A DNA stretch of 64,000 nucleotides from Dictyostelium discoideum. Its lineage: Eukaryota. Of this stretch, positions 4,504 to 10,359 are shown in pieces. The notes under the pieces are model-generated. The model did no database searches. It was not told the DNA's origin and worked only from the letters and a program-made list of their open reading frames with translations. The number at the start of each line of letters is the position of its first letter. Within the stretch, counting starts at the first letter, position 1. A program made the position numbers and the translations under genes. Location of the stretch: NCBI GenBank assembly GCA_000004695.1, contig CM000151.3, positions 2,144,001-2,208,000 of the forward strand, written 5' to 3'.

Positions 4504-6108
4504 ATGAATTTTAAAAGGTTGATTACAACATCTTTTACAAATCAAATAAAAAATATGAAATTTAAAAAAACAATTAGTTTTAAACCATTTGATATTAATA
4601 ATCGAATTATTTATGATAAAGAACCTACAATAGTTTTTAAAGATCAAAAATCATGTTTGTTAAAAGATACAATTTCAACAACACTTGAAGATGGTAGTAA
4701 GGAATTAAAAATAAAAATTGGGAGATTTACACCAGGTTTAGATTCAAATAATAATTATATTTCATCAGATATCTTTGAAATTAATATTAACAATTATTCA
4801 AATAAAATTGATTTATGTTTGGTAAGTTTAAAATTTTATATATACATATATTTTATTTAAACAAATAAACAAACAATTTAGCAATACAATTATTGTTAAC
4901 AATCAAAACAATCAAAAAAAAATTACAATCAAATAATAAACAAAACATTAAAAAAACAATATATAACAAATCCATCCAAACAATCTATCAAGTAAATATT
5001 GTTTATTTTTTTTTTTTTTTTAGTTTACACTTTTGATTTGTTTTTTTTTGTTTGGTTGGTTATTCATCTTTTTTATTAAAGATTATTAATAAATTTTATA
5101 TTAGAATGGTAAAAATCCAACATTTTTAAGAAGAAAAGGAAAAATACCGACTAAAGTTAAAAATTGGGAACAATTATTAGGAGAACAATTGGAAATTAGA
5201 AAATCAGTCACTTTGGAAGATGGTGATATAATATCTTTTTTAGGTTTAAATGGTACAACTTCTTCAATACAATTTACAATTGAAGAAGATAATGAAAATG
5301 AAAAAGAAAAAGAAAAAGAAATGGAACTTGATAACGATAATACAAATACAGAATCAATTCCACCAATAACATCAAAATCAACATCAACATCAACATCACT
5401 TATAGATACAAATAAAATTCAATTGAAAAAACATTTTGAAGATCCAAATTCAAAGAATGTAGGTCTTTCAGCATTAGTTTATTTTTGTAATAAACCAGAA
5501 TCATTTCTAGATGTTGTTTTATATTATGATGATAAAACAGTTGCGGTACTTGATAAATATCCAAAAGCAAAACATCATTATTTAGTAATACCAAGAGTTG
5601 AAATCAATACATTGGATGAATTAACACCTTCTTTCATTCCAATGTTAGAACATATGTATAATGTTGCTGATGCAATTATAAATGAAATAATTTCAAAAGA
5701 TAATGATGACGATAATTTAAAAAAATCAGATTTCAAATTAGGTTTTCATGCAATACCATCAATGAAAAGACTTCATCTTCATATTATCTCAAATGACTAT
5801 AATACTAAATATTTAAAAAATAATAAACACTGGAATTCTTTTACTACTGAATTTTATATTCCTTTTGATAAAATCTTAAATGAATTAAAATCAAATGGTA
5901 AAGTTAAAGTAAGTATAAAAAAAAAAATAAAAAAAAATAAAAAAAAACTAATTCACTAAACAAATTATTATTTTAGATTGATCAAGTAAAATATAATTCA
6001 ATATTAAGTCAAATAAAAAAATGTCCAATTTGTAAAGAAGAAAATAAAAATTTAGAAAATTTAAAAGACCATTATAAAAAATGTTTAGAAAAATTTAAAT
6101 CTAAATAA
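4504..6108 (+). CDS. aptx: Aprataxin homolog (FHA domain - HIT domain - C2H2 zinc finger); exons 4504..4821, 5105..5908, 5977..6108
   Basis: The N-terminal FHA-like region continues across intron 1 (donor gtaagt at 4822, acceptor tattag at 5099-5104). The HIT core includes HHYLVIPRV and the histidine triad HLHIIS. Intron 2 runs from donor gtaagt at 5909 to acceptor ttttag at 5971-5976. The last exon encodes CPICKEE...HYKKC (zinc finger) and ends taa at 6106-6108. Confidence 0.75.
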
Positions 6109-6156
6109 ATAAATAAAAAATATAGATTTTATATACAAAAAAATTTAAATTTATTT

Positions 6157-7857
6157 TTATTTTTTATAATCCAATAAAATTACTGGATTGAAATTTTCAG
6201 TTTCATAATTGAAAACAAATTTAACTAATTTTAAACTATTTAGATGTTGCTTATTTTTATCGATTAATGATTGATACGGTTGAATCATATCGGGTCTACC
6301 ATTAACTTCAACTATACTGACAGAAAAATCAGTGATAGTTTTATTTTGTTCTAAAATTCTCTCTATTAATTGTGGACAGTTAATACTTGTAACAAATGAT
6401 TCCATTGATGTGCTTGATGAAATTAGTGATGAAAATCTTTCAATAAATGTTTTTGGTGATTGTTCACATAGTATTTGAGATGCTTGACATTGACCTGATA
6501 ATCGTAAACTTTTTAGGGTTTTATTATTTTTCAAGGCTTCTTTTAAAGAGTCCCAATTTTTATTGAATTCCTCATTCACTTCCATTGAATTTGAAGGATT
6601 TCTAATTAAACTATCACAATTACATTTTTTAATTTTTGATTTCTTTCTTTCAGTTTTTGTCGATAAATAATATATTAAATTATTATAACAAATACTAACT
6701 ACAAGCTGACTTACTTTCTTTGAATAATTTAAAATTAATTCTAAATCTTTTAATGAAACTTCCATTGAAGATATTTCTAAAAATTCTATATTTTCTAAAA
6801 AATTAATTTTTTCATTATATTTCTTATTTTCTTCATTATTATTATTATTATTATTATTATTATTATTATTATTATTATTATTATTATTATTATTATTATT
6901 ATTATTATTATTATTATTATTAAAAGGTATAATACCAGCTAACATTGGAAATTGTATTTTATCTTGTTGAGAAGTATAATTTATAATGGATAAATGAGCA
7001 ATTGAATTTTTATATTGTTTAAATGATTCGATAATGAGTTCATTATCTAAACATGAATTAATTTTCAAAGTAAGTACCTTTTTAACATGTTTTTTTATTT
7101 TATTTAAAGATTTAAATGTAAAAATTGGATTTAAATCTAATTCTAATAGATGAATATTACCATCAGTCGCTTCACATCGATAAAGTGATTGTAAAATATC
7201 AGTAATTTCAGTCTCGTTTGATGATGATATATTTCTTAATATTAAGTTTTTAAATATAATTGTTTGTTGTTGTTGTTGTTGTTGTTGTTTTTGATTTTCT
7301 AATAATGATAAAGTTGATGGTATGGTTGTTTTTAATTTTGATAATTTTTCTAATTCTTTATTAACTATATCCAATTCTATTATTTTTTCACCAGATTTAT
7401 TATATGATGGTATTTTATCTTTAATATCTTTAATATAAAAGAATGAACCTTGATGATCGAAATGTAATTTCAATGTTTTTAAATTCTCTTTTTTAATTAT
7501 TGAATATTTTAAATCAATGTCATTTTTATTATTATTATTATTATTATTATTATTATTATTATTATTATTATTATTATTATTATTATTATTATTATTATTA
7601 TTATTATTATTATTATTATTATTATTATGATTTAAATTTGTATAATTAAAATCAACTGATACAGTTAAATTATTTGATAAAGTTTTAAACCAATCTTGTG
7701 ATACTAATGCCAATGTTAACATTAATCTTTTAATTTGACTTTCATTCCCTCTATAGTCATCAATAACACAATTAATTGATTTATTATTTTTATCTATATA
7801 TCTACATAAAATTTTAATTATATATTTTTGAATATATAATGGTAATAACACAACCAT
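6157..7857 (-). CDS. F-box-like / LRR-like protein with two long poly-Asn tracts (566 aa, single exon)
   Basis: The N-terminus LPLYIQKYIIKILCRYID...LALVSQDWFKTL fits the F-box consensus (LPxEILxxIL...VSKxW). Repeated LKTLKL/LKSLRL leucine-rich segments follow. Poly-N tracts are encoded by (ATT)n on the plus strand at ~6838-6925 and ~7527-7627. Confidence 0.6.
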   Translation of the reverse strand: MVVLLPLYIQKYIIKILCRYIDKNNKSINCVIDDYRGNESQIKRLMLTLALVSQDWFKTLSNNLTVSVDFNYTNLNHNNNNNNNNNNNNNNNNNNNNNNNNNNNNNNNNNKNDIDLKYSIIKKENLKTLKLHFDHQGSFFYIKDIKDKIPSYNKSGEKIIELDIVNKELEKLSKLKTTIPSTLSLLENQKQQQQQQQQTIIFKNLILRNISSSNETEITDILQSLYRCEATDGNIHLLELDLNPIFTFKSLNKIKKHVKKVLTLKINSCLDNELIIESFKQYKNSIAHLSIINYTSQQDKIQFPMLAGIIPFNNNNNNNNNNNNNNNNNNNNNNNNNNNNNEENKKYNEKINFLENIEFLEISSMEVSLKDLELILNYSKKVSQLVVSICYNNLIYYLSTKTERKKSKIKKCNCDSLIRNPSNSMEVNEEFNKNWDSLKEALKNNKTLKSLRLSGQCQASQILCEQSPKTFIERFSSLISSSTSMESFVTSINCPQLIERILEQNKTITDFSVSIVEVNGRPDMIQPYQSLIDKNKQHLNSLKLVKFVFNYETENFNPVILLDYKK

Positions 7858-8301: not shown

Positions 8302-9897
8302 TTATTTTTTATAATCCAATAAAATTACTGGATTGAAATTTTCAGTTTCATAATTGAAAACAAATTTAACTAATTTTAAACTATTTAGATGTTGCTTATT
8401 TTTATCGATTAATGATTGATACGGTTGAATCATATCGGGTCTACCATTAACTTCAACTATACTGACAGAAAAATCAGTGATAGTTTTATTTTGTTCTAAA
8501 ATTCTCTCTATTAATTGTGGACAGTTAATACCTGTACCAAATGATTCCATTGATGTGCTTGATGAAATTAGTGATGAAAATCTTTCAATAAATGTTTTTG
8601 ATGGTGATTGTTTACATAGTAGTATTTGAGATGCATAACATTCATGAAAGAATTCTAAACTTTTTAGGGTTTTATTATTTTTCAAGGCTTCTTTTAAGAG
8701 TCCAATTTTATTGAATTCCTCATTCACTTCCATTGAATTTGAAGGATTCTTATTTCACTTATCACAATTACATTTTTTAATTTTTGATTTCTTTCTTTCA
8801 GTTTTTGTCGATAAATAATATATTAAATTATTAAAACAAATACTAATTACAAGCTGACTTACTTTCTTTGAATAATTTAAAATTAATTCTAAATCTTTTA
8901 ATGAAACTTCCATTGAAAATATTTTTAAAAATTCTATATTTTCTAAATAATTAATTTTTTCATTATATTTCTTATTTTCTTCATTATTATTATTATTAAA
9001 AGGTATAATACCAGCTAATATTGGAAATAATTGCATTTTATCTTGTTGAGAAGTATATTTTATAATGAATAATTGAGCAATTGAATTTTTATATTGTTTA
9101 AATGATTCGATAATGAGTTCATTATCAAAACATGAATTAATTTTCAAAGTAAATACCTTTTTAACATGTTTTTTTATTTTATTTAAAGATTTAAATGTAA
9201 AAATTGGATTTAAATCTAATTCTAATAGATGAATATTACCATCAGTCGCTTCACATCGATAAAGTGATTGTAAAATATCAGTATCTTCAGTCTCGTTTGA
9301 TGATGATATATTTCTTAATATTAAGTTTTTAAATATAATTGTTTGTTGTTGTTGTTGTTGTTTTTGATTTTCTAATAATGATAAAGTTGATGGTATGGTT
9401 GTTTTTAATTTTGATAATTTTTCTAATTCTTTATTAACTATATCCAATTCTATTATTTTTTCATCAGATTTATCGTCATCAAAAATATCATTATCTTTTG
9501 GTGATTGTTTTTTATCTTTTTCATAAATACTAATATCTTTAATATAAAAGAATGAACCTTGATGATCGAAATGTAATTTCAATGTTTTTAAATTCTCTTT
9601 TTTAATTATTGAATATTTTAAATCAATGTCATTTTTATTATTATTATTATTATTATTATTTTTATTATGATTTAAATTTGTATAATTAAAATCAACTGAT
9701 ACAGTTAAATTATTTGATAAAGTTTTAAACCAATCTTGAGATACTAATGCCAATGTTAACATTAATCTTTTAATTTGACTTTCATTCCCTCTATAGTCAC
9801 CACCAACATAATCAATTGATTTATTATTTTTATCTATATATCTACATAAAATTTTAATTATATATTTTTGAATATATAATGGTAATAACACAACCAT
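8302..9897 (-). pseudogene. Decayed tandem paralog of the F-box-like gene (split into ORFs 8755..9897 and 8302..8733 by indels; poly-N tracts short)
   Basis: The protein is about 90% identical to the 6157..7857 product. The reading frame breaks near 8740-8760, where ...KKCNCDK* replaces the copy-A sequence ...KKCNCDSLIRNPSNSMEVNEEF. Further indels turn KNWDSLKEAL into KIGLLKEAL and LRLSGQCQASQILCEQ into LEFFHECYASQILLCKQ. Poly-N runs are 8 and 5 residues here, versus 36 and 31 in copy A. Confidence 0.55.
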
Positions 9898-10359
9898 TGT
9901 TGCTTTAAATTTGTAAAAAAATTAAAATATTAAAATTTTTTTTTTTATTATTGGCTGTTAATAAAAAAAAAAAAGAAAAAAAAAAAGAAAAAAATAAAAC
10001 AAATTAAAATAAAATGAAAAATAAAAAAAAAAAAAAAAAAAAATTAAATAAAAAAAAAAAAAAAAAAAATAAATTGTTATGTTTTTCTTAAAATTTTAAA
10101 TATCATGGGGTTTGAAAATAGATTTTTTAAAATTCCAGATTTAAAAAAACTTAATTTGAAATAGAAAAAATAAGGTGGATGGATGTAAAAAGTTCAGAAT
10201 TAAAGTGGAAAAGTAAGTTCTAAACGTTTTTATTTACTGGTCGCAGCCCCCCTTTATAAAAAAAAAAAAAATACAAACATGTACAATTTTTTTTTTTTTT
10301 TTTTTTTTAATAAACTAAAAAAAATGAAAAAAATAATTATTTTATGTTTATTATATTTT

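Follow-up and report, generated by a model that had tools for sequence, protein, structure and literature searches.

A young tandem duplication on chromosome 2 of Dictyostelium discoideum, with possibly adaptive, one-sided divergence

Cases are known of young tandem duplicates that diverge asymmetrically, with fast evolution of the copy that has an incomplete regulatory region. The pair described here lies on chromosome 2 of Dictyostelium discoideum, between an aprataxin-like gene and a WD40 gene. It is part of a stretch of 64,000 nucleotides, from here on called the window (GenBank assembly GCA_000004695.1, contig CM000151.3, positions 2,144,001 to 2,208,000 of the forward strand). As in other such pairs, the copies are direct, the corresponding site is empty in relatives, and there is one conserved and one accelerated copy, the latter with partial loss of its upstream region. 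What differs is that some 35 residues were replaced even though the synonymous distance (dS) is only about 0.005, and that a breakpoint in the neighbour's intron made an orphan exon.

The duplicated gene invites comparison with the F-box/leucine-rich-repeat (LRR) substrate receptors of Skp1-cullin-F-box (SCF) ubiquitin ligases, such as FBXL, TIR1, COI1 and D3/MAX2. These evolve by birth and death, with positive selection in the LRR. Here too, three N-terminal helices and an LRR solenoid are predicted, along with an LPxxIxxxIxxxL ... LALVSxxWFKTL motif, and replacements concentrate on the LRR strands. In contrast to those receptors, there is no Pfam F-box or LRR match, fold comparisons give TM-scores (template modelling scores) of 0.2-0.33, the family has 38 representatives and Skp1 binding is putative.

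Coding (AAT)n microsatellites, which encode poly-asparagine (poly-Asn), are reportedly a known feature of the Dictyostelium genome. The arrays in this gene are likewise in frame, and their length varies greatly between paralogues and strains. What is different here is that the comparison is between copies whose common origin is known and very recent; in two laboratory-line assemblies the arrays are identical.

The aprataxin (APTX) family combines FHA, HIT and C2HE zinc-finger parts. The neighbouring gene (DDB_G0272839) has a HIT/DcpS_C domain and a C-terminal C2HE zinc finger, and in one source it is named 'putative FHA-HIT'. The peculiarity is that its last exon alone was duplicated, while the functional gene is intact.

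The duplication and its single-copy relatives

Two adjacent, direct and collinear copies of roughly 2.1 kb occupy positions 5900-10100 of the window. A preliminary description of this DNA had reported a tandem segmental duplication of an aprataxin zinc-finger exon together with the whole gene next to it, and this is borne out. A local alignment of 5880-8100 against 8060-10100 has 1894 matches and 45 mismatches, or 97.7% identity over about 1.94 kb of columns. The collinear blocks run from 5911/8092 to 8039/10073 and are mainly interrupted at trinucleotide arrays. A repeat search similarly found matching pairs at a spacing of 2040-2192 bp, with similarity far above chance. The parts of the locus are:

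5911..8091, no strand: duplication unit A, 2181 bp, from the repeat search and the alignments
8092..10073, no strand: duplication unit B, from the alignments (right end approximate, in A-rich DNA)
6157..7857, minus strand: gene copy A, an intact open reading frame (ORF) of 566 amino acids (aa); the derived copy
8302..9897, minus strand: gene copy B (AX4 gene DDB_G0273011), a single frame of 531 codons interrupted by one TGA; the ancestral-like copy
7858..8039, no strand: what copy A retains of the ancestral upstream spacer, about 180 bp with confident homology to 9898-10073
9898..10359, no strand: the full ancestral upstream spacer, present for copy B only, 460 bp, collinear with the spacer of a wild isolate
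8040..8097, no strand: A-rich low-complexity DNA and the junction, where CACAAATTTGGGTCGCC (17 nt, not A-rich, 8075-8091) adjoins the intron-copy 'aagtat' at 8092

The left edge of unit B reads 'aagtat', which equals 5911-5916. As had been proposed earlier, the duplication starts inside intron 2 of the aprataxin-like gene: the unit begins at 5911, 2 nt past the donor GT at 5909-5910, and the intron is confirmed by the 5908|5977 splice of an AX2-type protein model (P0017). On the right, confident homology stops at 8039/10073, within A-rich DNA. Around 50 bp of A-rich DNA lies between 8039 and the 17-nt filler at 8075-8091. Within the window this filler, CACAAATTTGGGTCGCCAAG, matches only itself, and the next best match has 5 mismatches. 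Both breakpoints are in or beside oligo-A tracts, one of them in the aprataxin intron. Such a setting would fit unequal exchange or replication slippage as the mechanism.

A longer unit, reaching 'ggtcgc' at about 10240, was considered and dropped. The motif is absent in the wild isolate, and there is no demonstrable homology past about 8039/10073. As a separate observation, the A-rich spacer upstream of copy A (7923-8060) has an internal repeat of around 50 bp (agaaaaaaaaaagaaaaaaataaaaaaaattaaaataaaaaaaaaaa) that is single upstream of copy B; the length of A-rich spacers changes fast.

Four other genomes were compared: the wild D. discoideum isolate (L003), D. cf. discoideum (L004), D. citrinum (L005) and D. 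firmibasis (L002). In each of them just one gene lies between the aprataxin-like gene and the WD40 gene, the spacer has a normal length, and there is no relic of a second unit at the locus. Homology searches gave 6 matches for the poly-Asn query and 8 for a masked one. Both missed the orthologues in the first three of these genomes, which were reached via the aprataxin neighbour. A conserved neighbour of 205 aa, when used as a query, led only to the contig of the second laboratory-line assembly introduced below, and to no further strains.

The dS between copies A and B is 0.0053. It is 0.064 between copy B and the wild isolate, and 0.63 between copy B and D. firmibasis. Because there is a single copy in all four other genomes, and because the two copies are this close, the duplication is evidently very young and appears to have arisen within the NC4 laboratory lineage. 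Syntenic relatives had been suggested as a way to date it, and they do: it is younger than the split from D. firmibasis, and absent even from another D. discoideum isolate.

The window itself is the AX4 reference, as the AX4 protein of DDB_G0273011 (P0002) equals 9897..8851 plus 8748..8305, residue for residue. The second assembly (L001, GCA_054883475.1) aligns to window positions 1-19916 at 99.7%, with 27 differences in 19.9 kb. Both units are there, with the same junction, and neither the AAT nor the CAA arrays differ in length. The assemblies of its project are de novo, from Nanopore and Illumina data (PMC12745789), and among the D. discoideum isolates in that work AX2-214 alone has not diverged from AX4. 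On the strength of this non-divergence, L001 is probably AX2-214.

The best explanation as a whole is probably a young tandem duplication in the NC4 lineage, in which copy A is diverging and copy B is ancestral-like, and where the stop codon in copy B is most likely a reference error. The ancestral order would have been an aprataxin-like gene on the plus strand, a convergent dictyostelid LRR gene with an F-box-like N-terminus on the minus strand, an A-rich spacer, and the WD40 gene, also on the minus strand. A single event with breakpoints in or beside A-rich tracts, one in aprataxin intron 2 and the other some 180-230 bp upstream of the LRR gene, would then have copied about 2.1 kb. Afterwards the distal copy B would have retained its ancestral protein along with the ancestral upstream spacer in full. 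In the proximal copy A, truncated upstream, about 34 substitutions (essentially all of them amino-acid changing) would have accumulated, together with five in-frame deletions and one Asn tract expansion, with its frame staying open. The functionless zinc-finger exon in unit B would meanwhile be decaying, through a 43-bp deletion flanked by microhomology.

The duplicated gene and the divergence of copy A

Pfam has no match at E <= 1 for copy A or copy B. It also finds no F-box at E <= 0.01 in 37 family members, and no LRR in the duplicated gene or its close relatives. The family is small, with 38 cluster representatives among 1.8 billion.

In an AlphaFold model, an LRR solenoid comes after three helices at the N-terminus. 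The model's mean pLDDT (predicted local distance difference test) is 69 and its pTM (predicted template modelling score) is 0.71. The helices, at residues 7-25, 34-50 and 56-63, have a pLDDT of 46-67. Residues 190-530 or so consist of alternating beta-strand and helix elements, mostly with a pLDDT of 80-95. Foldseek lists 30 PDB fold matches at E <= 1e-3, predominantly LRR-containing proteins. These include LRR domains of NLR proteins and four F-box/LRR receptors (COI1, TIR1, FBXL3 and D3), at the TM-scores given above. TIR1 is also the best PDB profile match (E = 0.02), where 'LaLVskeWFkt' aligns to its 'SVSLVCKSWYEI', a stretch that scores just -0.1 bits.

The gene product is accordingly modelled as a leucine-rich-repeat solenoid. 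The gene had initially been called F-box-like, and this holds up in part. The F-box stays below the threshold and is found by Pfam in none of the 37 members, but the predicted fold has the three N-terminal helices plus LRR, and TIR1, COI1 and FBXL3 rank near the top of the fold and profile comparisons. 'F-box-like LRR protein' is plausible as a reasonable working description, and it is not established.

Every difference between the copies was polarised with the wild isolate and D. cf. discoideum. Roughly 37 coding differences can be polarised this way. At 34 of these copy B shares its state with every single-copy orthologue, so 34 substitutions are derived in copy A, versus 2-3 in copy B. Within the left non-coding part of the units, every change is derived in B. 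The stretches SLEFFHECYASQILLCKQSPSKTF and ISIYEKDKKQSPKDNDIFDDDKSDEK at first sight look like damage to copy B, but are ancestral and common to all orthologues.

Comparing A with B by the Nei-Gojobori method gives 1.5 synonymous and 37.5 nonsynonymous differences. This translates to a nonsynonymous distance (dN) of 0.031 and a dN/dS ratio (omega) of 5.9. Comparisons with orthologues have an omega of 0.14-0.22, with 0.17 for copy B versus the wild isolate.

Such numbers can be set against what chance would do. If the same mutation spectrum is placed randomly on the ancestral coding sequence, 7.2 synonymous and 2.1 nonsense changes are expected out of 34. Observed in copy A are 0-0.5 synonymous changes and no nonsense change at all, and the simulated probability of at most one synonymous change is 0.0016. 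The isolated single substitutions in A are nonsynonymous in 14 out of 14 cases (binomial P of about 0.035 at the simulation rate). The deletions specific to copy A, of 3, 3, 3, 24 and 12 bp, are all five in frame. In addition, there are 13 AT>GC changes against 10 GC>AT changes, so the former are not the rarer kind, in a coding sequence (CDS) with 21% G+C.

The substitutions in copy A are clustered, with clusters including 7401-7412, 7760-7773 and the densest patch:

6484..6504, minus strand: densest patch of A-derived changes, 10 substitutions in 21 bp, turning SLEFFHECY into SLRLSGQCQ in a predicted LRR beta-strand

More generally, 12 of the 32 replacements mapped on the AlphaFold model are in predicted LRR beta-strands, which comprise 19% of residues, so about 6 were expected. 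Predicted helices hold only 3 (36% of residues; about 11 expected). Gene conversion from a paralogue was rejected as the source of the clustered changes, the nearest paralogues being 30-37% identical.

Because the changes are nearly all nonsynonymous, the deletions are in frame and the frame is open, copy A would be a coding gene that diverges under positive or strongly relaxed selection. It lacks the marks of a pseudogene: the ORF is intact, the deletions are in frame, omega is 5.9 and not near 1, and there are no stop codons where 2.1 were expected. The truncated upstream region of A (about 180 bp, versus 460 bp in B) offers what may be a simple reason for the asymmetry.

A more specific reading can be put forward tentatively. 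Copy A might be a newborn LRR gene, possibly for an SCF substrate receptor, in early neofunctionalisation. Around 35 residues would have been replaced at a synonymous distance of about 0.5%, preferentially in the predicted ligand-binding LRR strands, and two Asn tracts remodelled, with copy B keeping the ancestral function. The same tentative reading has the duplication as polymorphic within D. discoideum.

Alternatively, the divergence of copy A could be neutral, which is somewhat unlikely but deserves to be taken seriously. Relaxed constraint and a few multinucleotide events would then have produced the changes, the frame would be open by luck, and copy A would be a nascent pseudogene. The clusters at 6484-6504, 7401-7412 and 7760-7773 are in line with this, as are the truncated upstream region and the very small synonymous count. 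Luck would however have to explain rather a lot: the shortage of both synonymous and nonsense changes, the fourteen isolated substitutions without a silent one, the five deletions in frame, and the AT>GC changes that are not rarer than the reverse.

Several points weigh against the preferred history and should be kept in mind. The omega of 5.9 rests on 1.5 synonymous differences; together with its simulated P of about 0.002, it comes from clustered changes and from counts on two copies only. About half of the A-derived substitutions are in four tight clusters, and multinucleotide mutation could inflate omega. The strand and helix enrichment uses a model of moderate confidence, given its mean pLDDT. 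The age of the duplication could be underestimated if there has been gene conversion between the copies. The AX2-214 identity of GCA_054883475.1 was deduced, not taken from its record. Finally, the lesion in copy B could be genuine, as discussed in the next section.

The trinucleotide arrays tell a story of their own. Those in the coding sequence are:

7526..7627, minus strand: (AAT)34, Asn tract 1 of copy A, 33 consecutive Asn
6835..6921, minus strand: (AAT)29, Asn tract 2 of copy A, 29 Asn
7264..7287, minus strand: (CAA)8 array of copy A, with 6 units in copy B
9635..9658, minus strand: (AAT)8, tract 1 of copy B, 8 Asn
8983..8997, minus strand: (AAT)5, tract 2 of copy B, 5 Asn

The preliminary description counted 36 and 31 Asn codons in copy A, against 8 and 5 in copy B. 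The numbers for B are right; those for A are slight overcounts of 33 and 29. Its larger claim, a strong change of triplet-repeat length after the duplication, stands, at 34 versus 8 and 29 versus 5 units.

Tract 1 has 9+38 units in the wild isolate, 14+31 in D. cf. discoideum and 5 in D. firmibasis, and judging by these counts a contraction in copy B is most likely. For tract 2 the wild isolate has about 9 units and D. cf. discoideum 8+5, which most likely points to an expansion in copy A. This amounts to a rate bound for coding AAT arrays: a 4- to 6-fold difference at a dS of 0.005, yet none between two laboratory lines.

The D. citrinum orthologue (726 aa, L005:11574-13754) has giant AAT arrays, one of 111 and one of 67 units. 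That of 111 units is at a third site, after ...KQSLKD, where copy A has a 36-bp in-frame deletion. Which Asn tracts expand in this gene differs between lineages.

The stop codon of copy B

Read as ORFs, copy B falls into two pieces, 8755-9897 (380 aa) and 8302-8733 (143 aa), which share one frame and are split by a TGA at 8755-8757. Two features matter here:

8696..8759, minus strand: cluster of differences between the window and L001, seven small changes in 64 bp, in patches at 8696-8705 and 8747-8759
8749..8850, minus strand: modelled 'intron' of DDB_G0273011, 102 nt, GT..AG; conserved coding sequence in the AX2-like assembly and the orthologues

It had been thought that indels around 8640-8760 split this ORF. 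The differences at 8600-8655 turn out to be in-frame changes in copy A, and the sole break is one TGA. The window there reads CNCDK*NKNPSNS, versus CNCDSVIRNPSNS. Across 5000-10400, the differences from L001 within the gene copies are confined to the seven in the cluster. One patch has a net change of -3 and the other is -1/+1 with substitutions; between them they create the TGA and change NKNWDSL into NKIGLL. All seven are unique to the window. L001 has an intact copy B gene of 532 aa, and agrees at these places with the wild isolate, D. cf. discoideum and D. citrinum. In three of the seven, a homopolymer is shortened (aaa, ccc and ttttt). Look-ups of the two broken ORFs found no record of either.

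The stop in copy B is likely a local base-calling error in the Sanger-based AX4 reference, and by this comparison it does not look like long-term decay. A genuine cluster of mutations private to the AX3/AX4 line, for example an error-prone repair patch, is an unlikely but not outlandish alternative; copy B would then be a new pseudogene in AX4 only. The window and L001 do truly differ at 8696-8759, and annotators had to place an intron round the lesion. Yet seven changes in 64 bp is extreme for about 50 years of laboratory separation, and the three homopolymer under-calls are typical of a poor Sanger read tail, in a reference with 8x coverage. There are also 20 further differences between the window and L001 in the 19.9 kb, and in the regions compared with the wild isolate the polarisable substitutions side with L001.

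The preliminary description went further, and had copy B as a redundant, decaying pseudogene broken by frameshifts, with copy A as its functional parent. Going by the window on its own this is understandable: there is a premature TGA with two scrambled patches, tract 1 of copy B is far shorter than in copy A, the wild isolate and D. cf. discoideum, and unit B does hold a decaying orphan exon. It is nevertheless improbable, and the decay of gene copy B cannot be upheld. Copy B agrees with all single-copy orthologues at 34 of the roughly 37 polarisable coding differences, has just 2-3 derived coding substitutions, and keeps the complete ancestral upstream spacer. The TGA is found in the window only; L001 has the gene intact, with the lesion as a 64-bp cluster within 5.4 kb that is otherwise identical.

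That the duplication is instead old, homogenised by gene conversion and lost in other lineages is very improbable. Tandem copies this alike can convert each other, in which case the persisting differences would be the selected ones only. But four lineages have a clean single-copy site with window-like spacer lengths, so four precise losses would be needed.

A real intron at 8749-8850, joining the two pieces of copy B as in the DDB_G0273011 model, is less credible still. It does have GT..AG ends, a length of 102 nt and 83% A+T. The same 102 nt however encode VISICFNNLIYYLSTKTERKKSKIKKCNCDSVIR in L001 and are kept in copy A and in all four relatives, in a gene with an omega of about 0.2. No orthologue model has an intron there, and splicing would leave the second patch (NKIGLL) unrepaired. 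The suggestion that an intron restores the frame of copy B thus fails, and the AX4 model of DDB_G0273011 is probably wrong.

An assembly artefact, made or expanded by contig mis-assembly, can be set aside as next to negligible: repeats with long AAT arrays are difficult for Sanger-read assembly, but an independent long-read assembly has the junction, both units and every array length, and what sets the two units apart, 45 mismatches and numerous indels, follows a consistent pattern.

The aprataxin-like gene, the orphan exon and other observations

The surroundings of the duplicated gene are:

4504..4821, plus strand: exon 1 of the aprataxin-like FHA-HIT gene (AX4 DDB_G0272839), from mapping P0016 and P0017; the AX2-like model starts at 4555
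5105..5908, plus strand: exon 2, with the HIT / DcpS_C domain (Pfam PF11969 5e-29, PF01230 2e-13), also from exon mapping
5909..5976, plus strand: intron 2, 68 nt, GTAAGT...TTTTAG, spliced in P0017
5977..6108, plus strand: exon 3, the functional C2HE zinc-finger exon with stop codon; P0017 maps to 5977-6105
8092..8168, plus strand: orphan copy of intron 2, GT donor absent, acceptor kept
8169..8261, plus strand: orphan, decaying copy of the zinc-finger exon, with a 43-bp frameshifting deletion
10360..14049, minus strand: final large exon of the neighbouring WD40 / beta-propeller gene, where the locus ends; syntenic in all relatives

In the six-frame ORFs, the plus-strand ORF with the HIT domain ends near 5959. 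In the AX4 model of DDB_G0272839 (P0016, 390 aa) the intron 2 donor is read through; the protein ends in ...KVKVSIKKKIKKNKKKLIH and has no zinc-finger exon. The AX2-type model P0017 and the orthologue models, at 399-400 aa, do contain it. The spliced product of 400 aa is listed with PF16278 (zf-C2HE), and so are the spliced products of relatives. Exon 3 has the sequence C-x2-C...H-x3-C and is identical in the wild isolate. The AX4 model is probably wrong here as well.

The orphan exon had been described as carrying a 45-bp deletion at 8168-8262. Decay there is, although the deletion measures 43 bp and the exon copy spans 8169-8261. Two copies of a 9-bp direct repeat, AAAAATTTA, flank the deletion. 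Through it the frame is shifted, and the zinc-finger pattern loses its His and its final Cys. The exon also has one T>C inside, and just downstream there is a second substitution and a 4-bp deletion, all derived in B.

It had also been suggested that this could be an exon-shuffling intermediate. That is unlikely: the orphan exon runs in the opposite direction to the gene copies on either side of it, no exon with a splice donor lies upstream of it, and both its frame and two of the metal ligands are gone. It is best seen as a functionless, decaying relic.

All in all the duplication is real but ordinary, and no new kind of biology. It is mildly interesting for how one-sided and apparently adaptive the divergence of copy A is, and for two reference gene models that are probably wrong: DDB_G0273011, with a spurious intron that hides a likely sequence error, and DDB_G0272839, which misses the zinc-finger exon. 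It also makes for a clean, dated case of the early fate of a tandem duplicate, where fate tracks which copy kept the full upstream region, and where an orphan exon decays beside two coding copies at the same locus.

An Rfam scan of the whole window gave 0 matches, exact look-ups of three window ORFs in a protein collection gave none, and a literature search on the two gene identifiers found no paper.

The differences between the window and L001 are clustered, at 1053-1700, 8696-8759, 10040-10053 and 14600-14656, and most are in homopolymers or low-complexity DNA. Four regions outside 8696-8759 were compared with the wild isolate, and there the polarisable substitutions side with L001. This suggests that the clustered differences are base-call errors in the reference.

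A trinucleotide-repeat region at 16216-16760 gives many staggered BLAST self-matches, and one TTA unit in it (16593) differs between the window and L001. Lastly, positions 1169 and 18585 are 17 kb apart and share the same motif, which is aaatagaaCCCtcaa in the window and aaCACtcaa in L001. This shared discrepancy hints at a small dispersed repeat.

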